From: Escherichia phage garuso
Sequence record: MN850566.1
Reading direction: 5' to 3' (one strand)
DNA length: 64,000 nucleotides
Below are positions 3,916-49,017 of the stretch, piece after piece. A program made the translations under genes and the position numbers. Numbering within the stretch: the stretch's first letter is position 1; each line of letters begins with the position of its first letter. The notes below the pieces were generated by a model. It worked only from the letters and a program-made list of their open reading frames with translations. It was not told where the DNA came from and searched no databases.

Positions 3916-4299
3916 TTAGATACCTGTGCAGCTTCTGTTTTCTAAGAAATACTCAACACCATACATAGCTTTTTGCATCAAATCTTCTTTAAACTGGATA
4001 CGATGGTTGAGCATAGCCTGTACATCAATATCATCATGGTGCTTCTCTTTAATATTTGCAGATTGCAGGAAATACTCTGCAAGAACGCGATACTGGTAGT
4101 CAGTTACCTTATCAGTCATCTCTGTCAAAGACTCTTCAGAGATTGGTTTAAGTAGCTCACCATTAGCTAGAGCAACACCTTTTACAATCTGGCAAGTATC
4201 CTCTGGAACACCTGATAAGTCCACATTTGGAAGTTCTGTTGCATTGACTGGTAAATTCATTGCCATAACCATTGCAGCAGCTAATAAAATCTTTTTCAT
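3916..4299 (-). CDS. hypothetical secreted protein
   Basis: 127 aa; signal-peptide-like N-terminus MKKILLAAAMVMAMNLPVNA. Confidence 0.5.
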   Translation of the reverse strand: MKKILLAAAMVMAMNLPVNATELPNVDLSGVPEDTCQIVKGVALANGELLKPISEESLTEMTDKVTDYQYRVLAEYFLQSANIKEKHHDDIDVQAMLNHRIQFKEDLMQKAMYGVEYFLENRSCTGI

Positions 4300-6119: not shown

Positions 6120-7220
6120 TTATTCATAATCCCTAATAACTAGCCCTACAGGGAACTGTAAAGACCCCTTACGAGTCATCTTCTGGAACTGAACCGTTAA
6201 AGGTTTCCCGATAAACTCTTCAGGATGTTCAGCAAGATACTTCTTCTTCTCATGGGTAGTTTTCCATGAAACATCTACAAAGACATTAGGAAGAGTCTCT
6301 ACAACGAACTTGCCATGACCACGCTTATCGGTCTTTACACCAGTCACTTTAAACTCTTCAGTGTGCATCTTCTTGTGCTTAATCAAGAAGTATGAACGGT
6401 GACAACACTCATAGAATGAGTCTTCAGAGATTGAACGGTACATTGCACCTTCAAACTTAGCTTCAACCCACTTATCATGAGCTTCATCAAACTCTTCCCA
6501 AGAATTTACACGGATAGTCTGTACAGGAACAACTCTACAGGCATCCCCAAGCTCAACAATAGGTGAGTTATCAATAACTTCACGACGCTCAGGCCAAGAT
6601 TTTGAATTGTCACAGATATCATACCAGTAGAATTTAAGAAGGTGACGGTCTGGATTGTCAGCATTCTTAATCATAGATACAATATCTTCTAAGTCCCAAC
6701 CATGAGCATAAATCTCGCCATCAAAGTCTTCAACTTGCGGGTGTAATTTAAGCAGCAAAAGCAAATCTGGGATTAGTTCTGCTGGAACGTTGTAAACAGT
6801 ATTCTCACGAGAATAAGCCGTGAAACTAACTGAATCAGCATCTCTTGAAATTCTGCAACGTACACCATCAAGTTTTGGTTGAGCATCAGCAGGGAACTTC
6901 AGATACTTTGCATGACTAACCTTTGCAGCATCATGAGCAAGCTGTACACCTACTTTCTCAGTATTCTTTGCAGACTCTTTTGTGTAAGCGTAGCCTTTAC
7001 GGTCAACTTGCTTTTTATACTTAGCAGCAACTTCAAAGAGAGCTTGCTGTTCAGCGTTACGCTCATTCTTTTTACCGATGTTTTTCGGTTCTGCTGTGTA
7101 CTCTTCAAACATCATCTTGCCATTTTCTTTACCATAGGTTGTAATAACTTTGTCACCTACAGCAACGCATGACCAGACGTTGAAAGAGCCATCTTTATTT
7201 TGTTTGTATAGGATTGTCAT
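6120..7220 (-). CDS. ATP-dependent DNA ligase
   Basis: Nucleotidyltransferase motifs KLDGVR (motif I), DGEIY (III), EGAMYRS (IV), LIKHKK (V); start set at second Met of ORF 6120-7253. Confidence 0.8.
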   Translation of the reverse strand: MTILYKQNKDGSFNVWSCVAVGDKVITTYGKENGKMMFEEYTAEPKNIGKKNERNAEQQALFEVAAKYKKQVDRKGYAYTKESAKNTEKVGVQLAHDAAKVSHAKYLKFPADAQPKLDGVRCRISRDADSVSFTAYSRENTVYNVPAELIPDLLLLLKLHPQVEDFDGEIYAHGWDLEDIVSMIKNADNPDRHLLKFYWYDICDNSKSWPERREVIDNSPIVELGDACRVVPVQTIRVNSWEEFDEAHDKWVEAKFEGAMYRSISEDSFYECCHRSYFLIKHKKMHTEEFKVTGVKTDKRGHGKFVVETLPNVFVDVSWKTTHEKKKYLAEHPEEFIGKPLTVQFQKMTRKGSLQFPVGLVIRDYE

Positions 7221-7222
7221 TT

Positions 7223-7414
7223 TTATTCCTCTGAGTGATACCAAGTATTGCAAGCATTACATGCGTAAAGCTCTAAGTCATTTTTATCTGGTTTATGAAA
7301 ACAGTTTGCTCCGCAGTGGCAACGAAATGGCTTTCCACCAACTGTCAGGACGAAGGACTGAATCTTTCCATCAGGAGTCCGTACAGCATTTTTATGCTTA
7401 TCTTCTTTGTTCAT
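7223..7414 (-). CDS. hypothetical zinc-ribbon protein
   Basis: 63 aa with CHCG...CNACN. Confidence 0.4.
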   Translation of the reverse strand: MNKEDKHKNAVRTPDGKIQSFVLTVGGKPFRCHCGANCFHKPDKNDLELYACNACNTWYHSEE

Positions 7415-8520: not shown

Positions 8521-9072
8521 TCAACTTAGTTTTGCAAACTCTCCGTGGAGTTTAATAGCAGCTTCACAGTAAGCTTTATGGGCTTCTTCAGGGGTGTCAA
8601 ACATACCAAGATGATAGTTTTTACCTTGTAAACGTATCATTGCTCGAAACCTTTTACTTATCTTCTGTACACCTTTTGGCAACCCAGATGGGGACTCTCT
8701 TGACCGATTGCAAGAGTTTTGTGAAGCTGTACAAACCCTTAAATTCAAGTACCTATTGTCCCAACCGTCCCCATTCTTATGGTCAACCTGTAAGGTTTTA
8801 TCAGGTAGATATCCATCCATATACAAGACAACTAAACGATTTGCTTGGTAACCCCTTCCATCAATCAGCAACTGAACTGACTTGTGTCCATCAGTATTTG
8901 TTCTGTAGTTTCCAGCCCTCTTACCTCCAAATCTAGAGTTAGAGTTTGCATTACCTTCTCTAAACTTCCAAGTAAAGACCCCTGTTTCGGGGTCGTAGTC
9001 CAATAGCTCCTTAAGACGAATTTCTGTAATCATTTCAACACCATCAATGTACCTCATACCAGCTCTTACCAA
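8521..9072 (-). CDS. HNH homing-endonuclease-like protein
   Basis: 183 aa; HNH core VDHKNGDGWDNRYLNLRVCTASQN; N-terminal LDYDPETGVFTWK shared with ORF 18923-19447; overlaps 3' end of polymerase exon 2. Confidence 0.7.
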   Translation of the reverse strand: MVRAGMRYIDGVEMITEIRLKELLDYDPETGVFTWKFREGNANSNSRFGGKRAGNYRTNTDGHKSVQLLIDGRGYQANRLVVLYMDGYLPDKTLQVDHKNGDGWDNRYLNLRVCTASQNSCNRSRESPSGLPKGVQKISKRFRAMIRLQGKNYHLGMFDTPEEAHKAYCEAAIKLHGEFAKLS

Positions 9073-9604
9073 CCTTACCTGTGCCAGTTACAAGCGTCTC
9101 ACTCTTCAAACCTAAATTCTTAGATGCCTGACCATACATCCAGTCAGTTATGGCTTTAACTTCTTGAGTCATACTTTCTGGGCATTCCCAACTGTTTTCA
9201 TCGTGGTATGCCAGCAAAAGCCTAGCACCGATTGCTGGTTTTCGTCCATTTAATTTTGTCAATCCTTCTTCACATGCTCTTCTACAAGCAAGGTTAATTG
9301 CCTCGTTCTGAATCTGGCTTTCCGAACCCATGAGCAAATAATTCAATAACTTATGTGGAGATTTACACCACAACCATGCACCTGCTACCTTTACAAAACC
9401 CCCTTTAGAGATTGCAGCAGTCTTACCAAACACCTCTTCAAGTGCCTTTTTAGTTGCTTTGTAGTCAGCTTCCAAGTCATCTAGCAGCTTCTTAATTTTA
9501 GGCAAACGAATAAAGTAAGTCTGTTTAGTCAGCGCACCTTCCTGAGTAGTTGCAGCCTTAATCGTCTTAGCAAACTTCTCATCACCTGCACCGAACAATA
9601 CATC
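9044..9604 (-). CDS. DNA polymerase (family A), 3' exon
   Basis: Begins inside motif B (LFGAGDEKFAK, cf. T7 YGAGDEK) and contains motif C region LLAYHDE; 5' boundary approximate. Confidence 0.75.
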   Translation of the reverse strand, partial: DVLFGAGDEKFAKTIKAATTQEGALTKQTYFIRLPKIKKLLDDLEADYKATKKALEEVFGKTAAISKGGFVKVAGAWLWCKSPHKLLNYLLMGSESQIQNEAINLACRRACEEGLTKLNGRKPAIGARLLLAYHDENSWECPESMTQEVKAITDWMYGQASKNLGLKSETLVTGTGKVGKSWYEVH

Positions 9605-9915
9605 TGGTCAATACACTCGCAAGGTGTACCAGTTCTCTTATGAACTTCTCCGCATTTCTACGGAGTGTCGGACTATATCACGTAGTAATAATACTACCGT
9701 TGCACTTGGGAATGGTCATTAGCTTACCACCCTACTCTACTCAGTTCATACATTAAGTATGCTTTTCGATAGTCTCTGAACGTTTCTCTGTTAGGAATCT
9801 CTATAGTTATGTTATTTGCTTTAGGAGTCCTAACAGAGACTTCGCTGCTGATTACCATATCTTTACAGACTTAGGCTTCCAGCAATTCACAACGTTTTAC
9901 ATGCGCCACTGACGC
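9599..9915 (-). other. group I intron interrupting the DNA polymerase gene (no internal ORF)
   Basis: Minus strand carries R element GTTCAGAGACTA (plus 9770-9781) and S element GATATAGTCC (plus 9670-9679) in correct order; intervening sequence has stops in all frames; exact splice sites not resolved. Confidence 0.65.
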
Positions 9916-12054
9916 ATAGATACCATTCTTAGCCTTCTTACGTCCTTTGCTAATCTCATGAAGAAGATTCTCATCCTGAGTAGCTCGACAAGTCAAGATG
10001 TCCTGCTCATCATTCAAGTTAAAGTAAATACTATTCAGTGTATGTGCATCAGTCCCTGAATAGACAACGTACAGGTCATTCTCAGAGTCATAGTGAAGGT
10101 ACTTATCAATCTCTGGGTTGAGATACTCATCGAAGTGTTTGCAGTAATAGCGTCCATCTTCTTGACGAGTAAACTCAATCTCTTCTTTACCTTGCGTTAC
10201 CGCTTTGGTGAACTCTTTATCACCCATAAAGTTACAAAGGAGAACTAGCTGGGCTGAGTTCATATCAACGGAGACTACGTTGGTTCCCTCTTCGCAAATC
10301 CACACCTCCCTCATAGGCGCTCCATAGACAGCAGCACCAGACGGTACGTTTACAATACCATATTGTGTCATACGTCCAGTTGAAGTGCCAAACACCATTG
10401 CACCAGCACTAAGGCGACCATCAGGACGAATCTGGTTCAACCAACCTTTTTCATCATCCTTTGAGTTCTCAATAGTTCTGCGTCGGTGCATCAAAGTATA
10501 GTACTTAGCAATCTTCTGTCCAAGCTCACCTTCAATCGTATCATAAGATGATTCAGTAAGTTTTGGTGAAGTACGGATTAAGCAAGGTTCAAGCAAATCT
10601 GTGTATTTCTTCACAGACCAGTTATGCTCGATGTACTGTACACCTTCATGTTCAACATAACTCAAACCACACCGCTCAACCATTTCCTGCCACTTAGGAT
10701 GCTTTGTAATCATCTTTTTATTGTCTTTGAAACGACAAACTTTGATAGGGCGACCATCTGAGTCTTTCTTGTAATTCCAGTCATCTGGAATCCAACCAAC
10801 TGATTTCAAGTAGTCTTTAACAACTGCTACCTGAGTCATACGAGAAACTTCAAACTCAATTGGTGTATATGGTGCATCAATCAAACCTGTGTAGCGACTT
10901 GACTCAAGTTCAAAGTGATTGACAACGTGACTGTTATAGTACTTCACAGTCTTGACTGTTTTTACTGGTTTCCAGTCTTTGCATTTTTTGCCAATCTTTG
11001 CATTCAACTCGTTGCAGATTGCACGAGCATCCTTCATCGCTACAAAACCCTCTTTGTACTCTTCACCAGTTACAGAGTTGGTTGGTGTATAGCAATTCCT
11101 TTTTTCAATGTTAAAAATCTTTGTAGTTGGCTTACCAAATGGTTTGATTTCATAAGTCTGCATCTCACCATTACGTACCTGCTGACGATACTTTGTCTTA
11201 GGGTACTTGGTAATTCTCTTCAGTCCATCTGCATGACCAAATGTTTCAACATACTCATTCCAAGCTTTTGCAAACTCTTCTCCAGTCACTTTACCTTTGG
11301 TCTTAATAGTTGGAGGTAGATGTGGTTCAACCTCTGAAGCAAGCTCATTAGTCAACTTGTCAAGTTCCTTTACATGGAACTCCATAAGCTCCTTATCAGC
11401 TTTCCAACCATTGATAGCTTGCTGGCTCATCCAGAAAGATGTCTCTTTAGCTCGCATGTAAGTCTCATAAGTGTCTATACCACACTTCTTAAGCTTGAGA
11501 TACTCGTTATCAAGTGCCCGTTTAGTTTTGGCATTAATACGGATATCTTCTACAACACGAGTGAAGATTTCTGCATTCCACACACCCCAATGTTCAATCT
11601 CTGGTTTACGGACACCGACACGAGCACCCCATGCAGCCAAACCATGAGCACCTTTATAACCCTTTGGGGTTGGCCTATCCATCCACTGAACACGAGACTG
11701 GATAAGAGAATCCTGAAAGAAATTACTCCACGGCTTACATTTTGGATTATCAAAGTTCCATAAATCAGGCGCAATGTGATTGAAAACCCACCAGTCATAG
11801 CCGAGACCATTATGGATGCAAAGACGTTTTGCCTTTAACGCAAATTCAACACCTTCACGTAAGCCGCCCTTGATGTACTTAGTGTACTTGTGACCGAGGA
11901 TAGGTTCATCTGTAAAGACCCATACAGGTGGCTCTTCATCATCAGATTTATAGTCTGCGAAAGCCATTACGTGCACTTTAGTGAACTCAAGGAGTAAACC
12001 ATCAGTTTCTGTATCACCAACCAAATGTAAGTTTTTAAAATCTACGTTTTCCAT
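9916..12054 (-). CDS. DNA polymerase (family A), 5' exon with 3'-5' exonuclease domain
   Basis: Exo I motif DTETDGL; motif A region DMNSAQL; ends in motif B ...RKKAKNGIY; start set at Met with GAGGGAG SD (ORF track 9871-12084). Confidence 0.8.
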
Positions 12055-12109
12055 TTTTACTCCCTCTAAAATCATTAACCTCATACATTACTGCAAAAAA
12101 TTATAAAAA

Positions 12110-12145
12110 GCAAGTTGACAATGCACTTGACAAGGTGTTAATCTT
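12110..12145 (+). promoter_or_regulatory. candidate promoter with tandem TTGACA boxes
   Basis: AGTTGACAATGCACTTGACAAGGTGTTAATC; near-identical block at 57650-57680; divergent intergenic region. Confidence 0.35.
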
Positions 12146-12311
12146 TGCGAAGTGGGTTTTTACTTAAAAGGTTACTTAACAGTTTAACTATACAGATACT
12201 TTAAAACTCTTAAAAGATTATTTAATAGCTTTTAAAAAGCTTTAAAGTATAACGTATAGAATACGTTAAGATAAAAGATTAAAACTTAATAGTTACTTAA
12301 AAGAGGCTTAC

Positions 12312-12734
12312 ATGCAGAAAATGTTTGTTCACCCAGACATAGCTGACTTTGTTAGAGCTTTGCAGAAGTTGGAAGAACTTGACATTGCTGCTCAACGGGA
12401 ATATGCTCACCATCACAGGAGAATGGTTGATATACAACATGAAATAGAGTTATCTGAAAACTATGAAGATGACTTAAAATGCTCTGTGTTTGAGCATATG
12501 AAAGATGTTGCTACAGCGAGACGTAAAGCTAAAGACACAGTTGCTTTACTAGACTCTCTTAAAAAGAGGTTGCAAAGTGGTACAGACCTGTGTAATCTAG
12601 CGTCACTGATTAACGATGTTGAAACTTCTTGGGATAGGCACTATTATCCACGTTCTGAAAAGACACTTGACTTTTCTTCATCCGAAAACTTAAAATGTTC
12701 TAGAAAGAAACTTAACCAACTGAGAGAGAAATAA
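12312..12734 (+). CDS. hypothetical protein
   Basis: 140 aa ORF, first gene of plus block. Confidence 0.5.
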   Translation: MQKMFVHPDIADFVRALQKLEELDIAAQREYAHHHRRMVDIQHEIELSENYEDDLKCSVFEHMKDVATARRKAKDTVALLDSLKKRLQSGTDLCNLASLINDVETSWDRHYYPRSEKTLDFSSSENLKCSRKKLNQLREK

Positions 12735-12735
12735 T

Positions 12736-13536
12736 ATGAATATCGATGTAGAAAAGATGCTTGAAGAAAAAGGTATTGACGAAGCATTTTTAATCAATGC
12801 CGTAGAAAGCATGGCTATGATTCTTCGTGGGAACAACTACACAGAACAGTTTATGCCTTCAAGCTATAACTTGCCTGAAGACAAGTCTGATAATGGTGCT
12901 TTTGCAGAACAGGTTAACATGATGTTGACAGACACTACACTTGCTTTAGCATCTATAGTCGTAGGTGTTGATGCTCTTGCAGAGTTCATTTTTAAGGAGA
13001 TGCAGAAAAATGACTATATCTCCCTTAACTCTGAAGAAAAGGACTTATTACTGTCATTAGGTAATAATGAGTTAATTTCCATGATAATTTCATCAACAAG
13101 TGCTGTTATGGCTGCTCTTGAGAAGCGAATGGGAGAGAAGCTGTCACGATATGAAAAACTTGATTGGGGGGTAGAAGAACTAAACCCACGAATCCAAGAA
13201 ATTATCCAGCAAACCAAAGATTCTTTGGAAGAAGCTGTTGAAAATGACTCTGTAGCTGATATAGAACCACTTCAGGTGAAAGTTGCACTGATGATTCCAG
13301 CTATCTCTACGATGATGAATATCGTTGCACTAATCCAACTTTCACAGATGATGGGTGTAAGTATTGAGTTCATTGAGGAGATGACTGGTGGCGTTAGTAT
13401 GCAAGCCATCAATGATGTTTTGGTGAACATTGGTGCTTCAATCATTGAAGAAAAACTACGCATTAACTTCGGTGATGATTTTGTGAAGCAAATCTCAGCT
13501 ATGGCTGAAAAAGAGTATGCTGACCAACTGCACTAA
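12736..13536 (+). CDS. hypothetical protein
   Basis: 266 aa acidic ORF. Confidence 0.5.
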   Translation: MNIDVEKMLEEKGIDEAFLINAVESMAMILRGNNYTEQFMPSSYNLPEDKSDNGAFAEQVNMMLTDTTLALASIVVGVDALAEFIFKEMQKNDYISLNSEEKDLLLSLGNNELISMIISSTSAVMAALEKRMGEKLSRYEKLDWGVEELNPRIQEIIQQTKDSLEEAVENDSVADIEPLQVKVALMIPAISTMMNIVALIQLSQMMGVSIEFIEEMTGGVSMQAINDVLVNIGASIIEEKLRINFGDDFVKQISAMAEKEYADQLH

Positions 13537-13564
13537 GTCTTTATAAATCTTACAAGCCTCCTTA

Positions 13565-13589
13565 GTTGGGGGCTTTTTAGTAATTAAGG
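13565..13589 (+). terminator. rho-independent terminator
   Basis: AGCCTCC-TTAGTT-GGGGGCT followed by TTTTT. Confidence 0.5.
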
Positions 13590-13597
13590 GAGATAAA

Positions 13598-14341
13598 ATG
13601 AGTAATATTATCGCATTTACTGGAAAGGCACGTTCTGGAAAAGACACCTCGTGTTCTATTGTGAAGAACATCTTAGAGGATGAGTACGGCTACAATGTTG
13701 CAGTAATGGCCTATGCAGACAACCTTAAACTATCTGCATCAAAGATATTTGACCTGACTTGGAATGACCTGTATGGTGAAACTAAAGAGACTCCACAGGT
13801 TTTTGATTTATCATATCCTGAATTGATGTTCAAAGTTACAGAAGCTATGGAGTTTACCTTCAAAGATGAACGTTACCATATGGATTTTAAGCTTATGTCA
13901 GAACTAACCGGACGATTAATCATGGAGCTTAAGAAGATTGCTAAACCGACTCTATTAACACGTCTAGGATTTAGCAACAAGTATAAATTCTCATCAAGAC
14001 AAATTCAACAGATTTGGGGTACTGAAGTCATCCGTAAAGTTATGGGTGACAAATTCTGGGCTAAAGACCTTGAAAAACGAATGGCTCGCTTCTTTGAATC
14101 TTGTTCACTTATGAATCAAGAGGGTGTTGTTTTAATCAGTGACTTAAGGTTTGACTCTGAAGCTGAGTGGCTGAGTAGATTTGCACACCAGACTATTGAA
14201 GTAAAAAGAGACAATGTGGACAAGGTTTCATCACATGTTTCAGAAAATGGAATTTCTACCAAATATGCGCGTGACATTATCCATAATAATGGTACTCTTG
14301 CAGACCTTGAAAGTAAGCTAAGAGCTATCCTGAAGATTTAA
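13598..14341 (+). CDS. deoxynucleoside monophosphate kinase
   Basis: N-terminal IIAFTGKARSGKDT matches T4 gp1 dNMP kinase P-loop FLSGVKRSGKDT. Confidence 0.7.
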   Translation: MSNIIAFTGKARSGKDTSCSIVKNILEDEYGYNVAVMAYADNLKLSASKIFDLTWNDLYGETKETPQVFDLSYPELMFKVTEAMEFTFKDERYHMDFKLMSELTGRLIMELKKIAKPTLLTRLGFSNKYKFSSRQIQQIWGTEVIRKVMGDKFWAKDLEKRMARFFESCSLMNQEGVVLISDLRFDSEAEWLSRFAHQTIEVKRDNVDKVSSHVSENGISTKYARDIIHNNGTLADLESKLRAILKI

Positions 14342-14349
14342 AAGAGAGA

Positions 14350-14550
14350 ATGAAGATGAGAGTAAAAGACAATTTTAAAGTTATTGACCACCGTTTAGTG
14401 GAACTCTCATCTCTTTCCAATGAGGTAATGATTGAACGTCTTAAGAGAGTTGAATCACGAAGGAAAGAGATTGCAGATGAAATTCATGAACTGGACAAGA
14501 TTGAAAATGGATTGAAGGCAGAACTACAACGAAGAGGTGCTAATGTCTAA
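14350..14550 (+). CDS. hypothetical protein
   Basis: 66 aa coiled-coil-like ORF. Confidence 0.4.
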   Translation: MKMRVKDNFKVIDHRLVELSSLSNEVMIERLKRVESRRKEIADEIHELDKIENGLKAELQRRGANV

Positions 14551-16528
14551 AGGTCGTAAATTGAAAGAGGCTGGTCAGTTTATTGGTCATTGTGCATGTC
14601 CACGTTGTGGTTCATCAGATGCTGGTTCAATCTATCATCATGACGATGATTCTTATTCGATGACTTGCTTTAGCTGTAACAAAGGTTTCCCAGAGTGGGA
14701 TTTTGATAAAGGACAAATCGTGAGCACTTATTCTACTGGTTCAGATAACAAAAACCGTACTTTCCGTGGAATGGATTTAGACGATGTAAAAGAAAACCTA
14801 GAAGCAATGGACTTGAAAGACAGGAAGATTCCTGCAAAAGTCCTTGAACGCTTAGGTATCAAGGTTGACATTGACAGTGACGGTGAAATTGATGCGCATT
14901 TCTATCCAACTTACAAACGTAATGAAGATGGTAAGCTAGAGCATGTTGGTTACCGTGTTCGTCACCGTTACCCAGAAGACCATCCAAAAGAGCACCTACG
15001 TGGTAAGCTAAAAGACTTTTCTGGTGGTGTTGGAGACATTAAAGGTGAACTGGCAATGTTCGGTTCATGGATTGCTCCAGAAGGTGGTAACCGTCTATTC
15101 ATCTGGGAAGGTGAGATGGAATGTGCGACAGCAATCTATATGACTTCTCTTGCGATTAAAGATAAGTCTCGTCGTAAGAATTACTGTCACGTATCTGTAC
15201 CATCAGGTGCAAACATTAAGTCTATCAAAGACAACTATCAGTACATCACATCATTTGATGAGATTTACTTGTGCTTTGATAACGATGAAGCAGGTGCTAA
15301 AGCCACTAAAGAGGCTGCTGGCATTCTCCCTATCGAGAAGGTTCGTTTATTCCAGTATCCAGAGGGTGTAAAAGACCTTAACGAATGGTGGACAAAGTTC
15401 TATAAAGAGAAAGATACAGTTCTTGAAGGGTTTAAGCAGCGTATATACAATGCACCCCGTTACTGCCCTGCTGGTATCAAGAACTTCGCAGATGGTTTTG
15501 AGGCAATGAAGAATCGTGGTCAGATTCCATTGATTCCTTTCCCAGAATCATTCGGAGATTTGAACAGACTGACTTATGGCGGTTATGGTTTAGGTGAGAT
15601 TACAACTCTGGCAGCACCCTCTTCAGTGGGTAAATCTGCATACACTCGTGAAATGATTTACACAGCTTGGAAAGAAACCGATTACAATATTGGTGTAATT
15701 CCTGTAGAAGATACCTATGAAGAGTTGATGGAGATGCTTTGTGCAATCCACCTTAGCAAGCAGATTTCTGAGATTCCTTATGACGAACGCGATTGGGATG
15801 AATTGAAGGAAGCACACGCAGAACTGTCTAAAGGTCGTCGTATCCACATCGTAGACCATCAAGGGGCAATTGACCAAGATAACTTGCTGGAGTTTGTTGA
15901 CTATCTTGTTAATAGCTTAGACTGTAAGATTATTATTCTTGACCCTATTACGTTGGCTCTGTCACGTTCAGATACGGATGAAGAGGAAGTTTTGTCTGAG
16001 CTATTGCGTCGTTGCAAACGCTACCAGTATGCACAAGTGAACGTCTGTCACGTTCGTAAGAGTGCAGGTGGTCAGAAGGCTAACTCTGAAGGTGGGGATA
16101 TCTCTGAAGAGGATATTAAAGGCTCTGGTGCGTATTTCCAGATTTCTATGAACAACATTCTGTTAATGCGTAACAAGGTTGACCCAGACCCTGTTAAGAA
16201 AAACTTGACAAAAATCAAGCTAACTAAATGTCGTCGTCACGGTAAGTCAACGGGTATTGCTGGTCATACTTGGTACAATCCAGATACAGGACGCCTCATC
16301 AAAGCATCTGGTTGCGGAGTTGACATTGATGGTGCAGCAGAAAATATTCGCCAACAGTTTGGTATTGGTGAAGCTGAAGACCATTACGATGACTCTTTGC
16401 CACATTATGAGGATGAAGTGTTTGACCGTGAGACTGGTGAAGTCTATACTGAAGAGCAGCGCCAAAGCTCAACGATTCCACCTGTATTAAGTGAGGATGC
16501 AGATGACTGCCCATTCGAAACTGAGTGA
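14537..16528 (+). CDS. bifunctional DNA primase-helicase (T7 gp4-like)
   Basis: N-terminal Cys4 zinc ribbon (CPRCG...CFSCN), TOPRIM-like FDNDEAG, C-terminal Walker A APSSVGKSA. Confidence 0.8.
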   Translation: MLMSKGRKLKEAGQFIGHCACPRCGSSDAGSIYHHDDDSYSMTCFSCNKGFPEWDFDKGQIVSTYSTGSDNKNRTFRGMDLDDVKENLEAMDLKDRKIPAKVLERLGIKVDIDSDGEIDAHFYPTYKRNEDGKLEHVGYRVRHRYPEDHPKEHLRGKLKDFSGGVGDIKGELAMFGSWIAPEGGNRLFIWEGEMECATAIYMTSLAIKDKSRRKNYCHVSVPSGANIKSIKDNYQYITSFDEIYLCFDNDEAGAKATKEAAGILPIEKVRLFQYPEGVKDLNEWWTKFYKEKDTVLEGFKQRIYNAPRYCPAGIKNFADGFEAMKNRGQIPLIPFPESFGDLNRLTYGGYGLGEITTLAAPSSVGKSAYTREMIYTAWKETDYNIGVIPVEDTYEELMEMLCAIHLSKQISEIPYDERDWDELKEAHAELSKGRRIHIVDHQGAIDQDNLLEFVDYLVNSLDCKIIILDPITLALSRSDTDEEEVLSELLRRCKRYQYAQVNVCHVRKSAGGQKANSEGGDISEEDIKGSGAYFQISMNNILLMRNKVDPDPVKKNLTKIKLTKCRRHGKSTGIAGHTWYNPDTGRLIKASGCGVDIDGAAENIRQQFGIGEAEDHYDDSLPHYEDEVFDRETGEVYTEEQRQSSTIPPVLSEDADDCPFETE

Positions 16529-16784
16529 TAGTTATAAAAGAGAGGGGTTCACACCCTTCTTTGAAGAAAAAAGTTTAAATAAATTTCAGGAAGAGTGTTT
16601 GACAAAGATTGATAGATTCTATAGAATGCTCCTCATGAAATGCGATGGAGAGGTTGAGATAAAAGAAGATTTTCACCAGAGCATGATTACAGTCATCATT
16701 GCGCTGCCTCAGCATAATATTAGTTGGCTGTTTATAATTAAAGAAAATGTGTTTGAATATCAAGTATATCGGAGAATATCATGA
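16491..16784 (+). CDS. hypothetical protein
   Basis: 97 aa ORF; start may be internal. Confidence 0.3.
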   Translation: MRMQMTAHSKLSDSYKREGFTPFFEEKSLNKFQEECLTKIDRFYRMLLMKCDGEVEIKEDFHQSMITVIIALPQHNISWLFIIKENVFEYQVYRRIS

Positions 16785-17002
16785 AACACTCTAAAGCATT
16801 TGAAAAAGTTTTTGGGGATTCCTTAAAAGCCACTGCTGGAAAACCAGCAAAATACTATGAAGAAAAACGTGTAAGAACTGGAAAAACTGCACGCAAAGCA
16901 GCTTCTAAAGATAAGCACAATTTCCAGTAATTAGTATTTGACAATAGGGTATCAACAAACTAGAATTGGTACTCTTCATAAATTGAGATAGAGGTTTAAA
17001 TA

Positions 17003-17860
17003 ATGTCTAAAGTTGTTAAAATGAAAGCTCCGGTAGAGAAGTACAACGGTACTGAACGTCAAACTCTGCGTTACCTGCTGAAAGATGTCTGGTTTTATTA
17101 CCTGAACACTTCACCACGTCCGGGGAAAGGTAAGTCTATTGATAAGAAATTCCCAGGCAAAGACTGTAACTACAGCGTATCAATTCTGGCAGAAGACGGT
17201 AACAAACTCTTTAAAGAGTTTACTAAGTCTAAGAAGAACCCAGAAGGTTGGGATAAAGTTACTACTGAAGCAGTTGATGCAGATGACTTCGAAGAGAAGT
17301 TTGGTTGTAAACCACCTTTTGAAGCAGACACTTACTACATCTTGAAAGTAAGTCGTGCAGCAGCTTATAAAGATGGTGCTGTATGGACAGCTAAACAGTC
17401 ATTCCCTGTAATGCTGATTGAAGAAGTAAATGGTAAGCGTGTAGCTGTTAAGCAGCCGATGAAGAAAATCAAAGCTCAAGCATCTGATAAACATGAAGAT
17501 GACAAGAACTATGATGTAATTCATCCAGATATCGCAGTTGGTAATGGTTCTTTTGGTAGTGTGATTCTTTCTACTCACTTCTACACTTTTGAGAACAATG
17601 TTCTGACAAAACCTATTCAGGAACAGTTTATCATTGATACTCTTGTACCTTACACTGGTGGTAACGGTGCTAATGGTGAACCTGAACTTGATGAAGATGA
17701 ACTGGCTATGCTTGGTCTTGATGGTGTTGAAGATAACGGTGAAATCACTGAAGAAGACGCAACAGACCATAAACCTTCGAATGCTTCTGATGATGGTGAT
17801 GATGAAGATTTGCCAGACCCAGATGACGAAGAAGATGAAGACTTCGATACAGAAGACTAA
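17003..17860 (+). CDS. putative single-stranded DNA-binding protein (gp2.5-like)
   Basis: 285 aa with strongly acidic C-terminal tail (DDGDDEDLPDPDDEEDEDFDTED) as in T7 gp2.5; position within replication module. Confidence 0.5.
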   Translation: MSKVVKMKAPVEKYNGTERQTLRYLLKDVWFYYLNTSPRPGKGKSIDKKFPGKDCNYSVSILAEDGNKLFKEFTKSKKNPEGWDKVTTEAVDADDFEEKFGCKPPFEADTYYILKVSRAAAYKDGAVWTAKQSFPVMLIEEVNGKRVAVKQPMKKIKAQASDKHEDDKNYDVIHPDIAVGNGSFGSVILSTHFYTFENNVLTKPIQEQFIIDTLVPYTGGNGANGEPELDEDELAMLGLDGVEDNGEITEEDATDHKPSNASDDGDDEDLPDPDDEEDEDFDTED

Positions 17861-17877
17861 TCTCTAAAAGTTACTTT

Positions 17878-17907
17878 AAAGCCCTGTACTTAGTATGGGG
17901 CTTTTTC
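17878..17907 (+). terminator. rho-independent terminator
   Basis: AAGCCC-loop-GGGCTT followed by TTTTT. Confidence 0.5.
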
Positions 17908-17922
17908 ATATGGAGAGCCATA

Positions 17923-18969
17923 ATGGAGAAGTACACATTAACAAAACTTCCCGATTCAGTTACACATGTTTTTATTGACTCTGATAGTATTGCCTATAAA
18001 GGTGCTTGTGTAGTTGAGAAAGCAAAATATAAATATGTCAATAAACTCACAGCAGAAGAATCTGAGCCATTTGATAATGCTAAAGATGCTGCAAGATGGT
18101 TAGCAGACCAGAGAATCCTTGTGGAAGAACTTGGCCTAGCATTTGATGAAGATGAATGGGAAAGACAGACTTGGAAAGAAGCTAAGAGTGAAAAAGAAGC
18201 TATCATGGCTACTCAACAGGTTCTTCAGGAATGGCTTAAGGTTGTTGGTAAAGAGAGAACTTGGGTAGGTTACTTAACAGAGAAAGGTGTGCATAAACAT
18301 AAAGACATTAAAGGTCTTGAGCACCAATATCAAGGTAACCGTAAAGATGCTGTCACACCAACACACTTAGTTGCTTGTCGTGAATATCTTCTGTCAAGAC
18401 CAGAGTTCAAACTCTTAAGGGGAGGCTTCGAAGCCGATTCAATCGTAATTGCTAAAGCTGAAAAGATGGGTAAGAAAGCTGCTCTTATGAGTATTGACAA
18501 AGACCTTCGACAAGCTGAAGGGACTTATTGTATTGATATGACTTATGAAAAATCACCACTAATCTTTATTGCTGACAATAATGTTGGTGATATCTGGGAT
18601 TGTCCTATCAAATCAAAACCAAAAGCTGCAAAAACAGTTGGTGTAGGTTTTAAATTCTTGTGTTATCAGGCTGTTGCTGGAGATAATGCAGACAACTACT
18701 TCGGCCTAAAAGGTGCTGGTAAAGTGGCTGTGATGAATGCTTTGGATGGTAAAGAGACTTACAAAGAGTGTCTTGATGCTATCTATGAACTCTATGCTAA
18801 AAAAGACTCTTATACCTACGTGTCATGGGATGGACAGACTGTTACAAAGACACCGTTAGAGTTAATGGAACAGCATTTCTTCCTAGCTTATCAAGAGCGA
18901 AATAAATCAGATATTTTTTCATTTGAAAAGTATGGTTGGACTCCAAATGTTGACTCAGCAGATACTTAA
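17923..18969 (+). CDS. 5'-3' exonuclease (T7 gp6 / T4 RNase H family)
   Basis: N-terminal VFIDSDSIA (cf. T4 RNase H LIDFSQIA), central SIDKD (cf. T7 gp6 SCDKD), H3TH-like GDNADNYFGLKGAGK. Confidence 0.6.
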   Translation: MEKYTLTKLPDSVTHVFIDSDSIAYKGACVVEKAKYKYVNKLTAEESEPFDNAKDAARWLADQRILVEELGLAFDEDEWERQTWKEAKSEKEAIMATQQVLQEWLKVVGKERTWVGYLTEKGVHKHKDIKGLEHQYQGNRKDAVTPTHLVACREYLLSRPEFKLLRGGFEADSIVIAKAEKMGKKAALMSIDKDLRQAEGTYCIDMTYEKSPLIFIADNNVGDIWDCPIKSKPKAAKTVGVGFKFLCYQAVAGDNADNYFGLKGAGKVAVMNALDGKETYKECLDAIYELYAKKDSYTYVSWDGQTVTKTPLELMEQHFFLAYQERNKSDIFSFEKYGWTPNVDSADT

Positions 18970-19447
18970 AGAATATCTACACTATGACCCCGAAACAGGG
19001 GTCTTTACGTGGATAAAGAAATCAGCTAAAAGAACAGTTATAGGTTCCATTGCAGGTACACCACATAAGCGAGGTTATATTAGGATAAAAATTAAAAGAA
19101 AACCCTATATGGCTCATGATTTAGCAATCCTGTACACAGACGGTTTCCTACCTAACAGAGTAGACCATCGAAACGGTATTACTAATGATAATCGGAGATT
19201 AAATCTAAGGGTTTGCACACAAGCTGAAAACTCTTGGAATAGAAGAACACACTCCAACAACACATCTGGAGTTAAGGGTGTATCTTTCTATAAGGCTAAC
19301 CAAAAATGGAAGGCCAGAGTTATGACACACGGAGTATCTCACTTTCTGGGGTATTTTGACAGTATTGAAGATGCCAAAGATGCAGTCACAAAGAAAAGAG
19401 AAGAACTACATAAAGAGTTTTCAAATCACGGAGAAGCTTATGAATGA
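18923..19447 (+). CDS. HNH homing-endonuclease-like protein
   Basis: 174 aa; HNH core VDHRNGITNDNRRLNLRVCTQAEN; paralog of 8521-9072. Confidence 0.7.
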   Translation: MKSMVGLQMLTQQILKEYLHYDPETGVFTWIKKSAKRTVIGSIAGTPHKRGYIRIKIKRKPYMAHDLAILYTDGFLPNRVDHRNGITNDNRRLNLRVCTQAENSWNRRTHSNNTSGVKGVSFYKANQKWKARVMTHGVSHFLGYFDSIEDAKDAVTKKREELHKEFSNHGEAYE

Positions 19448-19941
19448 AGATTAAAGGATTTGGCAATTGCCCTACCTACGGTCATTGGGTATCTTTATGT
19501 GGGGAAGTTGACCCCACTAAACATTTTGGCTTTGTCTATTTAGTACACTGTAAGAAGACTGGACAGTATTATATCGGAAAGAAACAGTTTAACAGTGTGA
19601 CCAAAAGAAAAGTTGCTGGGAAGACTCGGAAGAAGATAGTCACTAAGGAAAGTGATTGGATGACTTATGAGACTTCTTCTGAGTATATTAAAAAAGATAT
19701 TGAGAGTTTTGGAAAAGAATTTTTTGACTTTTACATTATTCAGACCTACTACACAAAAGGTGGCCTAGTCTATGGTGAAGCAAACCTTCAACATAAATTC
19801 GATGTAATGACAAAAAGGATTGACTCTAAGCTCAGACTCTTCTACAATGCCAATATTGCAGCAATTAAGTTTATCACTAAAGAAACTTATGAAGATGCTG
19901 AAAAAAGAATCCATAAGGTAATGAAAGCAAATTGTGCTTGA
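19444..19941 (+). CDS. GIY-YIG endonuclease-like protein
   Basis: FGFVYLVHCKKTGQYYIGKK fits GIY-(10 aa)-YIG motif. Confidence 0.55.
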   Translation: MKIKGFGNCPTYGHWVSLCGEVDPTKHFGFVYLVHCKKTGQYYIGKKQFNSVTKRKVAGKTRKKIVTKESDWMTYETSSEYIKKDIESFGKEFFDFYIIQTYYTKGGLVYGEANLQHKFDVMTKRIDSKLRLFYNANIAAIKFITKETYEDAEKRIHKVMKANCA

Positions 19942-31065: not shown

Positions 31066-31336
31066 AGAGAAGTGGGAGATTTTACCATTAGTCAGTGAAG
31101 GCGGTAATGGTTGTGAAATGTACATGATACGTGGTCATGTTCCAGAACCAATTGCACTTGAGATGGTAAACAACTTTACAGATGGCTCTTACAAAGACTT
31201 AGGGGAGCCAAATATAAAGCAGCAATGGGTAAAGCCTGTACCAGACAGCACAGGTAACTGTAGTGTACTTTATCACGTTGTAGACCCTGCAAAATGCAAA
31301 TCTGCAATGGCAGTAACAAACGTAACTTTTGATTGA
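31058..31336 (+). CDS. hypothetical protein
   Basis: 92 aa ORF. Confidence 0.4.
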   Translation: MAKEKWEILPLVSEGGNGCEMYMIRGHVPEPIALEMVNNFTDGSYKDLGEPNIKQQWVKPVPDSTGNCSVLYHVVDPAKCKSAMAVTNVTFD

Positions 31337-31347
31337 GAGAGAAAACT

Positions 31348-32229
31348 ATGAAAACTGTTATTGAAGCCGTCGTCACCGCACAAGAGAAATTCTTCCACAC
31401 AGAAAAATTTAATATCATTCAATTCCCATCTGGAGAAATTGGTGGAAACTTCTCTGAAGATTTTGTTAAGTTTACTGAGCGTAATGCTGGTAAGATTGAT
31501 AATGTTATAATTACTGTACAGGGATATGACAAAGATACACTGTTTGCATTAGCTTTGGCTAAGGATGCCGTTGACAGTCTTGTTCCCCAGAAATCAGCGA
31601 TGAAAACCGTTGTTTTCGGGTTCTTACCAAATGCTCGATATGACCGCCACATGTTCAAAGGTGATGCAGCAGCACTGAAAGTCTTTGCCAACCTAGTTAA
31701 TGCAATGGGTTTTGATGCAGTATGTGCTCTTGACCCTCACAGTAATGTTGCAGAAAACTTATTTAAGTGCTTTCAAAGCATGAAGCAAAAAGATGTGGCA
31801 GTACACTTTGCAAGTGACCCACGCATTGATTTCTTGGTAGCCCCAGATGCAGGTGCAGCTAAGAAGACTGAAGATACCGCTAAAGAGGTGGATAAACCGT
31901 ATATCACAATGTCTAAGGTGCGCAATCTTAAGACTGGTGAAATTACTGGTATGCGAATCCTTGATGATGTTGATTTGACAGATAAAACTGTCATGATTCT
32001 GGATGATATTTGTGATGGAGGCCGAACCTTCGTAGAGGCAGCTAAACACCTACGTGAAGCAGGTGCAAAACGTGTGGAACTCTATGTAACTCATGGTATT
32101 TTCTCTAAAGGTGTTGAAAACTTACTTGACAACGGTATTGACCATATCTACACTACAAACACTTTAGGTGAAGCTAAAGACCGTGGCTTAACACATTACG
32201 CCCAAGTTACTGTAGCAACCATTGATTGA
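31348..32229 (+). CDS. ribose-phosphate pyrophosphokinase-like protein (PRTase fold)
   Basis: PRPP-binding-type motif ILDDICDGGRT; start at ATG 31348 with SD; adjacent to NAMPT. Confidence 0.6.
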   Translation: MKTVIEAVVTAQEKFFHTEKFNIIQFPSGEIGGNFSEDFVKFTERNAGKIDNVIITVQGYDKDTLFALALAKDAVDSLVPQKSAMKTVVFGFLPNARYDRHMFKGDAAALKVFANLVNAMGFDAVCALDPHSNVAENLFKCFQSMKQKDVAVHFASDPRIDFLVAPDAGAAKKTEDTAKEVDKPYITMSKVRNLKTGEITGMRILDDVDLTDKTVMILDDICDGGRTFVEAAKHLREAGAKRVELYVTHGIFSKGVENLLDNGIDHIYTTNTLGEAKDRGLTHYAQVTVATID

Positions 32230-32274
32230 AACTTTATAGGGGCTTGAAAGCCCCACTTTGAGAGAGATTAAAAG

Positions 32275-34056
32275 ATGACTAAATCACTTTACGCAGTACC
32301 AGCAGGTCTTAATGCAGATGCTTACAAGGCATCACATATATATCAGTATCCAGATGCTACGCAATATCTTATGTTGAACCTGACACCACGTAGTGATAAA
32401 TGGTTTAACAGCCCTTTGGCAATTGACGGTGTAGTGGCTTTTGGTATTCAACGTTTCGTTAAAGATTACTTGATAGACCACTGGAACGCCACTTTCTTTG
32501 AACGTGATAAAAAAGAAGCCATTGATGAAATCTTAGAAATCATGAATGGTGTTCTGGGTAAAGATGCTATCGGTCGAGAGCACTGGGAAGCACTTCACGA
32601 CTTAGGTTATCTACCAGTTGAAGTATACGCTGTAGAAGAAGGTACAGTTGTCCCTATGCGCGTCCCAATGATTGTCTTCCAGAACACTGTTTCAGGCTTC
32701 CATTGGGTAGCGGGGTATCTGGAAGATGCTTTCTCTGCTGAGATTTGGAAGGCTTGTACCATTGCAACTATTGCATTGCACTACAAACGTATCTGTAAGA
32801 AGTGGGCTGACCTTACTTGTGACAACGACTTGCATTTGCCTTATCAGTGCCATGACTTTGCTATGCGTGGTATGTCCGGCTTTACTGATGACGCATTTAA
32901 CGCTGTAGGCCACTTAACCAGCTTTAAAGGAACTGATAGCTTCCCTGCTGTGTATACGGCTAAACGAATCTATGGACAGTCCTACCCAATCTCTGATATT
33001 GGTAGCTCTGTACCAGCCACTGAGCACTCTGTAATGTGTGCAAACATTGCTTGGGAAGGTGGTAATGAGTTGATTGAAGAAGAAAGACGCTTTAAAGGTG
33101 AGTTACAAACCTTCCGTCGTTTCTTAACAGAAACTTACCCAACTGGTATTGCAAGTGTTGTTTCAGACACTTATAACTTCTGGAGAACTGTGTCAGAAAT
33201 TTTACCAGCACTTCGTAAAGAAATTATGGAACGTGATGGCAAACTGGTAATTCGTCCTGACTCTGGAGACCCTGTACATATTGTCACAGGTTATAAAGCA
33301 ATCCACTTAGAATGTGCTAAAAAGGCTTATTACGAGCACCTAAGCAAGCTGGAAGCCAGTGACACAATGTTGAATGCTGTTCTGAACATGAAGCTTGAAA
33401 ATATCAACTATGGTATTGCTGGATGGCTACTGTCAGAAGGCTACGAAATGGTTGTTGACAGAGAAGACTTTGAAGTTGCTGATACAGTGATGTTGAAAAA
33501 TGCTTATATGGTTGGTTCTGCAAACGTTGTAACACGTCCTGTAGCTGAGATTGATGGAGCTATTAAGACACTGTACAACATTTTTGGGGGAACTATTAAC
33601 TCTAAAGGGTTTAAGGTACTGGATGAGCATATCGGACTTATCTATGGTGACTCTATCACGCTGGAACGTGCAAACGAAATCCTGAAGCGTCTGTATGAAA
33701 TGGGGTTTGCAAGCTCTAACGTGGTGTTTGGTGTAGGCTCTTACACTTACCAGTACATGACTCGTGACACCTTTGCATTTGCTGTCAAAGCAACTCTTGC
33801 AAGCATTGGTGGCAAAGAGATTATGCTTGCAAAAGACCCTAAAACAGATAGTGGTGTTAAGAAATCTGCCTTTGGTGGTGTAGCGCCTATGTGGGATGGT
33901 GATAAGTTGAAAGCTGTAGATGGCTATGGAATACAGAGTTTTGCAGATGCACTTGAACACCCAGCTTGTGCTTTACGTTTAGTCTTTAGCGACTCTGAGC
34001 AGTTCGGTTATACAACTCTTGGTGATATTCGAAATAATATTGACAAGCAGCTTTAA
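32275..34056 (+). CDS. nicotinamide phosphoribosyltransferase (NAMPT/NadV-like)
   Basis: 593 aa; size and neighbourhood with PRPP-synthetase-like gene as in phage NAD salvage modules. Confidence 0.65.
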   Translation: MTKSLYAVPAGLNADAYKASHIYQYPDATQYLMLNLTPRSDKWFNSPLAIDGVVAFGIQRFVKDYLIDHWNATFFERDKKEAIDEILEIMNGVLGKDAIGREHWEALHDLGYLPVEVYAVEEGTVVPMRVPMIVFQNTVSGFHWVAGYLEDAFSAEIWKACTIATIALHYKRICKKWADLTCDNDLHLPYQCHDFAMRGMSGFTDDAFNAVGHLTSFKGTDSFPAVYTAKRIYGQSYPISDIGSSVPATEHSVMCANIAWEGGNELIEEERRFKGELQTFRRFLTETYPTGIASVVSDTYNFWRTVSEILPALRKEIMERDGKLVIRPDSGDPVHIVTGYKAIHLECAKKAYYEHLSKLEASDTMLNAVLNMKLENINYGIAGWLLSEGYEMVVDREDFEVADTVMLKNAYMVGSANVVTRPVAEIDGAIKTLYNIFGGTINSKGFKVLDEHIGLIYGDSITLERANEILKRLYEMGFASSNVVFGVGSYTYQYMTRDTFAFAVKATLASIGGKEIMLAKDPKTDSGVKKSAFGGVAPMWDGDKLKAVDGYGIQSFADALEHPACALRLVFSDSEQFGYTTLGDIRNNIDKQL

Positions 34057-34061
34057 AAGTA

Positions 34062-34083
34062 TATGATAAGAGGCTCCTACGGG
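34062..34083 (+). terminator. rho-independent terminator
   Basis: GGCTCC-TAC-GGGAGCC followed by TTTTT. Confidence 0.6.
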
Positions 34084-34109
34084 AGCCTTTTTAATTTCTG
34101 GAGAAAACT

Positions 34110-39996: not shown

Positions 39997-40019
39997 GGCT
40001 CCTTCGGGAGCCTTTTTCA
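39997..40019 (+). terminator. rho-independent terminator
   Basis: GGCTCC-TTCG-GGAGCC followed by TTTTT. Confidence 0.6.
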
Positions 40020-48990: not shown

Positions 48991-49017
48991 AGCCCCTTTC
49001 CCATAGGGGCTTTTTTA
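48991..49017 (+). terminator. rho-independent terminator ending the plus-strand block
   Basis: AGCCCCT-TTCCCAT-AGGGGCT followed by TTTTTT. Confidence 0.6.

Follow-up and report, generated by a model that had tools for sequence, protein, structure and literature searches.

The DNA polymerase gene and the 5'-3' exonuclease gene of Escherichia phage garuso (sequence record MN850566.1) each adjoin a gene for an HNH endonuclease, here named HNH-A and HNH-B, respectively. A stretch of 64,000 nucleotides (nt) of this record, referred to as the window, was analyzed. Its sequence makes it likely that HNH-A and HNH-B are free-standing homing endonuclease genes of the HNH(N)-AP2 type which occupy two polymorphic sites, accompanied by a group I intron without an open reading frame (ORF) in the polymerase gene, a core GIY-YIG nuclease gene behind HNH-B, and a hairpin within both HNH genes that may attenuate their expression. 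Besides one core gene, the region contains three nuclease-related elements that are of known kinds and independent of each other. As an assembly of two HNH homing endonuclease genes, a degenerate mobile intron and a core nuclease it represents largely ordinary biology, apart from the hairpin. The window belongs to a Felixounavirus, a Felix-O1-like myovirus (Ounavirinae), and has a guanine plus cytosine (GC) content of ~39%. Over 12.5 kb around the locus it is 97% identical to Escherichia phage ekra, and 295 phage records match, nearly all of them Ounavirinae. A previous sequence-only reading of this DNA had described all three nuclease genes as free-standing homing endonucleases. What it had observed was confirmed; its interpretation is supported in part, namely for both HNH genes and not for the GIY-YIG gene.

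An ORF check recovered all three reading frames (Table 1). HNH-A matched the Pfam families HNH_3 (3.7e-12, above the cut-off) and AP2 (7e-6), and HNH-B matched HNH_3 (1.8e-7, above the cut-off) and, weakly, AP2. The AP2 scores of the single proteins (26.7 and 17.6 bits) lie under the gathering score of 33.3. A profile of nine allele classes matched the HNH core of I-HmuI (1U3E) with an E-value of 6e-8 over 66 residues, and the C-terminus in this profile matched solved plant AP2/ERF domains (E-values from 2.8e-11 to 2.6e-4). PHROG 99 was matched by both HNH-A (6e-60) and HNH-B (6e-70). The two proteins align over 181 amino acids with 39% identity (E-value 1e-35), and both contain the shared L.YDPETGVFTW motif and the HNH core that the sequence-only reading had pointed out. 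On alignment the catalytic His and Asn residues are intact in both proteins; D84, H85, N93, N97, L98, R99 and N109, which form a D-H...N...N-L-R...N core, are invariant across the nine allele classes. Members of the HNH(N)-AP2 family have been described before in Xp10-like phages and Felix O1 (PMC2248197; PMC5318435; PMC3185647), and the copies in Felix O1 and RB49 were remarked on by Magnani et al. 2004, as cited in PMC5318435.

The likely start of HNH-A is the ATG at 9033, which is conserved among alleles and yields 170 amino acids; the longest ORF opens at a TTG at 9072. From ATG 9033 the gene begins 10 nt past the polymerase stop and therefore does not overlap the polymerase gene, so that the overlap proposed earlier holds for the longest ORF only. 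The neighbor of HNH-A is indeed the polymerase 3' end, to be specified as exon 2 (9044-9600) of an intron-split gene. The conserved ATG of HNH-B lies at 18947 (166 amino acids). Whatever start codon is chosen, HNH-B shares at least 23 nt with the exonuclease gene at the 3' end of the latter (23 nt from ATG 18947), and the overlap of its stop codon with the start of the GIY-YIG gene, ATGA, can be read directly.

Both HNH genes are absent from many relatives. Of 33 sequences compared at the polymerase site, 14 have no insert separating the polymerase stop from the following gene; the occupied ones hold HNH-A or a member of at least four further allele classes. The exonuclease site is empty in 16 of 31 sequences; the others hold HNH-B or two other classes. 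Comparison of the junctions, as the sequence-only reading had suggested, shows that those of empty and occupied alleles are identical at each site. HNH-less alleles thus exist at both sites, and the HNH insertions are not universal. In GenBank, full-length HNH-A is present in 27 of 303 relatives and the HNH-B allele type in 27 records. The insert at the exonuclease site measures 491 nt and lies 8 codons ahead of the exonuclease stop, where empty alleles read ...AAATATAATTG|GGAGCCGTGTATGAATGAAGATTAA. It swaps the exonuclease tail EPCMNED for TPNVDSADT, the last nine codons being supplied by the 5' end of the insert, and restores a GGAG ribosome-binding site together with the ATGA overlap for the downstream GIY-YIG gene. 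Differences linked to occupancy are concentrated in the final 58 nt of the exonuclease gene; position -9 is A in all empty and in no occupied alleles.

Alleles found at the same site share 5' and 3' ends with 81-100% nucleotide identity, and their cores lack detectable nucleotide similarity; the sites therefore behave like cassettes. In locus L007, HNH-A is 92% identical to the window copy in a polymerase exon 2 background of only 82%; this and the occupancy-linked flank differences provide indirect evidence for homing. At the polymerase 3' end (window 9044-9072; L001-L033), GGTAAGAGCTGG occurs in most occupied alleles and GGTAAAAGCTGG in several empty ones. The former gives a better Shine-Dalgarno-like sequence, TAAGAG, upstream of the ATG at 9057, which is a possible alternative start of HNH-A. 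A decayed copy was observed at L048:4563, where a 1-nt deletion in the hairpin stem frameshifts an exonuclease-site HNH gene. A third site lies at window 32229-32275, where the gene for PRPP synthetase (31333-32229) is directly followed by that for nicotinamide phosphoribosyltransferase (32275-34056). Phage ekra holds an HNH homing endonuclease gene, ekra_28, between these two genes; the third site is therefore empty in the window.

The two HNH genes had been taken for recent paralogs that have spread within the genome. This view is not borne out at 39% identity between them, and HNH-B is 57% identical to other exonuclease-site alleles and 34-41% to polymerase-site alleles. Since the alleles cluster by site, HNH-A and HNH-B represent old site-specific lineages rather than recent intragenomic copies. 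A tblastn search of the window with HNH-A, HNH-B, the GIY-YIG protein, the ORF of the intron in relatives and the L003 allele revealed no further paralogs; the only extra match was a 30-amino-acid remnant of the intron ORF.

Exact indel boundaries, identical over many backgrounds, and several unrelated cores between shared ends at the same two sites argue for homing. They speak against the notion, which we regard as improbable, that the HNH genes are not active homing elements and instead variable accessory or domesticated nucleases (with functions in phage exclusion, replication or packaging) that became patchy by deletion and recombination. The proteins moreover belong to the classic phage HNH-AP2 homing endonuclease family (PMC2248197; PMC5318435), and Felix-O1-like genomes have been reported to differ mainly by indels of homing endonuclease genes (PMC3728262). 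Domestication would be in line with the purifying selection on HNH-B (ratio of nonsynonymous to synonymous substitution rates, dN/dS, of 0.07 versus a 79%-identical allele in L047), with the old, site-specific lineages, with the mosaic genomes and their frequent recombination, and with the presence of each allele type in only ~9% of records.

In HNH-A and HNH-B, a beta-hairpin motif at the N-terminus is followed by an HNH core like that of I-HmuI and, at the C-terminus, by the DNA-binding AP2 domain. The occupied sites lie directly after the polymerase stop (HNH-A) and 8 codons inside the exonuclease 3' end (HNH-B). We infer cleavage, target sites and homing of both enzymes as follows. In a mixed infection the enzyme would nick or cut the cognate region of a co-infecting genome whose site is empty or differently occupied, and recombinational repair would then copy the endonuclease gene and nearby flanking markers. 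Some points weigh against this scheme. Neither a cleavage site nor a target could be derived from the sequence; with respect to target-site differences, the association of the flank with the insert is weak at the polymerase site; and the multiple divergent alleles per site could reflect ordinary recombination of accessory genes.

Two features had been missed in the sequence-only reading, the intron and the conservation of the shared motif at the nucleotide level. In the window the polymerase is split into two ORFs of 737 and 184 amino acids, and the predicted spliced product comprises 909 amino acids. An uninterrupted polymerase ORF of 909 amino acids is present in locus L003. Relative to ekra, the window carries an exact insert of 311 nt (9911..9601), removal of which restores the reading frame. 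Rfam model RF00028 (Intron_gpI) matched over its full length with 63.3 bits (gathering score 50, E-value 1e-13). The intron is IA2-like and has P7.1/P7.2. In P1, the exon sequence AUGCGU pairs with GCGCAU, the 5' splice site lying at a U.G pair, and the intron ends with ...CAGAUG (last base G). The spliced sequence, IYALLFGAGDEK, equals that of intronless ekra and L003, the wider product being ...NGIYALLFGAGDEK.... The insertion lies in the polymerase O-helix (motif B), between the equivalents of Y526 and Y530 of T7 DNA polymerase; phage polymerase IA2 introns elsewhere are also located in the fingers subdomain (PMC3428280). Intron-bearing alleles read GCG U|UA UUG and most intronless ones GCA CUG CUG; P1 requires two of the four synonymous changes. 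In P8, one pair shows a compensatory change from U-A to C-G. We conclude that the polymerase gene of the window carries a group I intron which probably splices itself. It should still be able to splice, because it splits the O-helix of an essential polymerase.

In relatives the intron is found in several states. The long form (~800 nt) contains an ORF of 179 amino acids in the P6a loop, which matched Endonuclease_7 (PF02945, 5.9e-20). The window intron corresponds to this form minus the ORF, deleted between the direct repeats GACTCCTAAA and GACTACCTAAG, with the 12-bp P6a stem intact. Other relatives have a 268-nt intron (larger deletion) or a frameshifting ORF deletion of 22 nt (L011). Endonuclease loss is a stage of the usual intron life cycle, and the window intron is at this stage, having lost its endonuclease-VII-type enzyme by deletion between the short direct repeats in the P6a loop. 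Altogether, the intron is present in 96 of ~303 GenBank relatives as 311-nt, 268-nt or ~800-nt forms. No intron annotation was present in the GenBank records inspected, and no mention was found in the searchable literature; the Felix O1 genome paper reported no introns in Felix O1 (PMC3185647). A co-conversion tract around the intron could not be delimited, because differences between the window and ekra are spread over more than 2 kb; phage warpig is 100% identical to the window from 11,100 to 6,300, including the polymerase 3' half. Intronless loci L016 and L018 (~3990-4010) have exon codons near the intron-bearing type (TATGCGTTGCTG and TATGCGTTACTG versus the usual TATGCACTGCTG), which may be traces left by exact loss of the intron or by partial co-conversion.

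The vicinity of an ORF-less intron and a free-standing HNH gene raises the question of collaborative, or trans, homing: HNH-A, located 10 nt past the polymerase stop and ~570 nt from the intron site, might cut intronless polymerase genes at or near the intron site (AATGGTATCTATGCACTGCTGTTCGGT) and thereby mobilize the endonuclease-less intron. Precedents for such pairs exist in T3 gene 5.3 and the phage PhiI intron, F-CphI/psbA and T4 mobE/I-TevIII (PMC3984707; PMC2790892), and about half of the GenBank records with the 311-nt intron also have HNH-A (warpig, Tf, Mushroom, GEC_vB_NS7). This association is confounded, however, by near-identical genomes. Intron frequency is alike with HNH-A (10 of 27, 37%) and without it (86 of 276, 31%), and 17 of 27 HNH-A records are intronless with an unchanged site; over 60 nt around the insertion site, ekra is identical to genomes that have neither intron nor endonuclease gene. 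Moreover, most intron carriers encode the intron's own endonuclease-VII-type enzyme. We downgrade trans homing by HNH-A on account of the intronless HNH-A genomes and the similar intron frequencies, and consider it quite unlikely, with the caveat that nicking HNH enzymes such as I-HmuI can tolerate self-cleavage (PMC3428280).

The GIY-YIG gene shows a different pattern. Its product matched the Pfam family SegE_GIY-YIG (3.7e-28), with the catalytic domain covering residues 21-138 of 165 and the GIY...YIG, Arg, Glu and Asn positions conserved. A sequence search for a solved structure of this protein gave no significant match, and a fold search took its place. The predicted model has no separate C-terminal DNA-binding domain; past residue 138 there is one short strand and a C-terminal helix. 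In each of 30 loci the gene occupies the same position, with an intact copy in 29, and it is found at ≥60% identity in ~297 GenBank Ounavirinae records, including Erwinia phages (63%). Its dN/dS of 0.05 matches that of the exonuclease gene, and distant homologs are conserved in T4-like cyanophages. The sequence-only reading had counted it among the homing elements and had itself named universal presence at an identical position as incompatible with homing, which is what was found. The GIY-YIG gene is a core single-domain nuclease gene and not mobile, and the label 'NAD synthetase', which it bears in many records and in PHROG 447, is a misnomer.

The SegE_GIY-YIG match, a partial match to a PHROG that bears the label homing endonuclease and the location beside a hotspot for endonuclease gene insertion would also suit a Seg-like homing endonuclease gene that swept to fixation in the Ounavirinae and is still selfish. 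We hold this to be very unlikely in view of the universal presence of the gene even in Erwinia phages, its intactness, the low dN/dS, the conserved cyanophage homologs and a length of 165 amino acids without a DNA-binding domain of the Seg or I-TevI type.

The shared N-terminal motif of the HNH proteins coincides with an invariant hairpin in the DNA. HNH-A and HNH-B both contain exactly GACCCCGAAACAGGGGTC, which starts 39 nt after the conserved ATG. The stems GACCCC/GGGGTC are unchanged in 34 of 35 copies from nine allele classes, the exception being a pseudogene that has lost 1 nt from the 5' stem. The hairpin loop varies between copies, with amino acid changes. In the nine Felixounavirus classes, which have 34-73% protein identity, the stem codons are always GAC, CCC, GGG and GTC. 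These codons are rare in the window (CCC makes up 3.6% of proline and GGG 8.3% of glycine codons; p ~1e-4 for the four jointly). Among 23 invariant residues, only the four stem residues and the catalytic Asp are encoded by a single codon; 18 of the 19 others use 2-4 codons, and other invariant glycine, proline and alanine columns use 3-4.

The peptide motif is common to 424 IMG/VR relatives. Among the best 80 loci, ~50 copies come from outside Felixounavirus; in these, the same peptide is encoded by varied codons which allow only 2-5 Watson-Crick pairs. The peptide is therefore a protein feature of the whole family, with the hairpin as an additional constraint at the nucleotide level. The hairpin occurs in copies from Enterobacteriaceae myoviruses (Felixounavirus, Klebsiella phage KpV52) and is absent from those ~50 relatives elsewhere. 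The only other carriers of the stems found were rare HNH genes beside an exonuclease gene in relatives of KpV52: at L074:4406-4435 of Klebsiella phage vB_KpnM_KpV52, an unrelated phage of 47 kb and 49% GC, an HNH-AP2 gene with the motif HYDPVTGVFTW has the same GACCCC...GGGGTC stems. This gene, too, adjoins an exonuclease gene, and only 4 of 72 related records have it.

These codon data bear on whether the hairpin is a by-product of the conserved D-P-x-x-G-V peptide, whose codons are partly self-complementary, or of local gene conversion. The fixed codon positions of DPxxGV alone supply three of the six stem pairs, the peptide is widespread, and no compensatory change occurs in the stems. Nevertheless, the varied codons of the relatives outside Felixounavirus, the constant use of rare CCC and GGG in the nine classes and the free codon choice at nearly all other invariant residues make a by-product rather improbable. 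Gene conversion is disfavored because the loops and flanks of the hairpins have diverged.

As RNA, the HNH-B hairpin (51-nt fold) has a folding energy of -19.9 kcal/mol and a z-score of -4.8, and the HNH-A hairpin is the top terminator-like site of the minus strand. The window contains 14 perfect 6-bp GC-rich hairpins. Ten are intergenic, many with a T-run, and one lies only in a short, doubtful ORF on the opposite strand; the three inside clear genes are those in HNH-A, HNH-B and the GIY-YIG gene. The HNH hairpins have the architecture of the intergenic terminator-like hairpins of the window. The latter were seen at 787-806, 34072-34087, 39997-40012 and 48992-49010 (+) and at 54824-54809 (-); their stems recur nearly alike (GGCTCC...GGAGCC or GCCCCT...AGGGGC), each followed by a T-run, and they look like standard intrinsic terminators. 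The hairpin of the GIY-YIG gene, GTGGGG-AAGTTGA-CCCCAC, is located at window 19499-19517 (+), 55 nt into the ORF; 22 of 31 sequences have it in perfect form, with a single compensatory change from U-A to C-G. A larger structure sequestering the ribosome-binding site was considered for the HNH hairpins and rejected: folds of 141-146 nt had z-scores of -0.13 and -2.0, so that their stability exceeded that of shuffled sequences marginally or not at all, and the hairpin stands alone.

Our best guess from these data is that the hairpin may serve as a weak terminator or attenuator that limits nuclease expression. A bolder idea, which we put forward only tentatively, is a novel cis-acting element of homing endonuclease genes, an intragenic mimic of phage terminators, which could either throttle expression or act on the DNA as an AP2/G-tract autoregulation site or as a handle for core swapping between alleles; the hairpin of the GIY-YIG gene would be a looser analogue. 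Some points weigh against the attenuator reading. Only a short T-run follows the hairpin (TTTACTTGG / TTTACGTGG), which at best would make it a weak terminator. Because the stems never vary, there is no covariation by which an RNA structure could be told from a DNA- or protein-binding site. In addition, the hairpin of the GIY-YIG gene is clearly broken in 7 of 31 sequences.

Table 1. Location of the nuclease genes, the split polymerase gene and associated elements in the window
Feature	Position	Strand	Basis and remarks
HNH-A, free-standing HNH(N)-AP2 endonuclease gene (putative)	8521..9072	-	183 amino acids in longest ORF; Pfam HNH_3, AP2
Hairpin GACCCC-GAAACA-GGGGTC in HNH-A, coding for DPETGV	8977..8994	-	Exact match
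DNA polymerase exon 2	9044..9600	-	Starts with TATTGTTCGG, codes for (L)LFGAGDEK... to stop; alignment to ekra, Pfam DNA_pol_A
Group I intron, 311 nt, without ORF	9601..9911	-	Rfam Intron_gpI; alignment to intronless ekra
DNA polymerase exon 1	9912..12084	-	Ends with ...ATCTATGCGT; alignment to ekra
5'-3' exonuclease	17923..18969	+	Called exodeoxyribonuclease or 5'-3' exonuclease in phages Mushroom and ekra
HNH-B, free-standing HNH(N)-AP2 endonuclease gene (putative)	18923..19447	+	174 amino acids in longest ORF; Pfam HNH_3, weak AP2
Block missing from HNH-less alleles, 491 nt	18939..19429	+	Junction alignment
Hairpin GACCCC-GAAACA-GGGGTC in HNH-B, second copy	18986..19003	+	Exact match
GIY-YIG nuclease-domain protein, 165 amino acids	19444..19941	+	Pfam SegE_GIY-YIG

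Elsewhere in the window, Rfam detected 17 tRNA genes arranged in an array at 59843-63380 (+), which is expected in a Felix-O1-like phage. The DNA ligase region at 6120-7414 (-) consists of two overlapping ORFs, 7223-7414 (63 amino acids, Cys-rich) and 6120-7253 (377 amino acids). Both are labeled 'DNA ligase' in warpig and could represent a frameshift, a split gene or an annotation artefact.

The results have consequences for annotation. In many Felixounavirus records the entries are 'DNA polymerase (x2)', a 'hypothetical protein' in the intron and, for the GIY-YIG gene, 'NAD synthetase'. They should be corrected to a single polymerase split by an intron, the intron itself, in which a homing enzyme of the endonuclease-VII type is either present or absent, and a GIY-YIG nuclease of the core genome. 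Every state is found among the more than 300 relatives sequenced, from the empty site through several alleles to introns with an intact, frameshifted or deleted ORF. Felixounavirus therefore offers a ready system for the life cycle of homing endonucleases and for allele competition in therapeutic coliphages and Salmonella phages. The hairpin provides a small, cleanly testable case of synonymous-site selection within a selfish gene.

The HNH genes resemble the HNN/HNH-AP2 genes of Xp10, OP1, Xop411, Felix O1 and RB49 in their HNH_3-type D-H...N...N core without cysteine dyads and in the C-terminal AP2 domain. Xp10-type genes are likewise free-standing, present in several copies per genome and gained or lost between close relatives (PMC2248197; PMC5318435; PMC3185647). 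In contrast to these, the genes described here, which are known from sequence, occupy two fixed sites with several allelic cores between shared ends, and their N-terminal motif is locked in an invariant hairpin. The closest solved HNH core is that of I-HmuI, the nicking enzyme of the SPO1 polymerase intron (1U3E), which likewise targets a phage family-A polymerase gene. I-HmuI differs in being intron-encoded and in having a NUMOD4-type N-terminus and a helix-turn-helix C-terminus, whereas HNH-A and HNH-B have AP2. The arrangement of a free-standing HNH gene adjoining a polymerase gene that has an endonuclease-less intron in some relatives recalls T3 gene 5.3 and the PhiI intron enzyme I-TslI, F-CphI/psbA, and T4 mobE/I-TevIII (PMC3984707). 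Unlike in these pairs, there is no co-occurrence signal here, HNH-A genomes keep the common intronless site, and the intron's own enzyme in relatives is of the endonuclease-VII type and not homologous to HNH-A.

The intron shares the fingers site, an ORF position in P6a and P7.1/P7.2 with the group IA2 polymerase introns of SPO1/SP82, PhiI/W31, Pf-WMP3 and phiL7 (PMC3428280). It is distinguished from them by its host, a Felixounavirus myovirus, by an Endonuclease_7 enzyme (PF02945), as in the F-CphI family, instead of a classical HNH enzyme, and by the loss of the ORF from the window copy. The GIY-YIG gene differs from T4 SegE and I-TevI in being single-domain, universal and under purifying selection; its lifestyle resembles that of T4 EndoII (DenA), a housekeeping phage nuclease, and not that of a Seg element. 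Conserved 5' RNA hairpins limit the expression of I-TevI, I-TevII, I-TevIII, segB and mobE in T4-type phages by sequestering the ribosome-binding site (PMC2988022). The hairpin of HNH-A and HNH-B, by contrast, lies inside the ORF, 39 nt past the start, leaves the ribosome-binding site uncovered and resembles the intergenic terminators of the phage.

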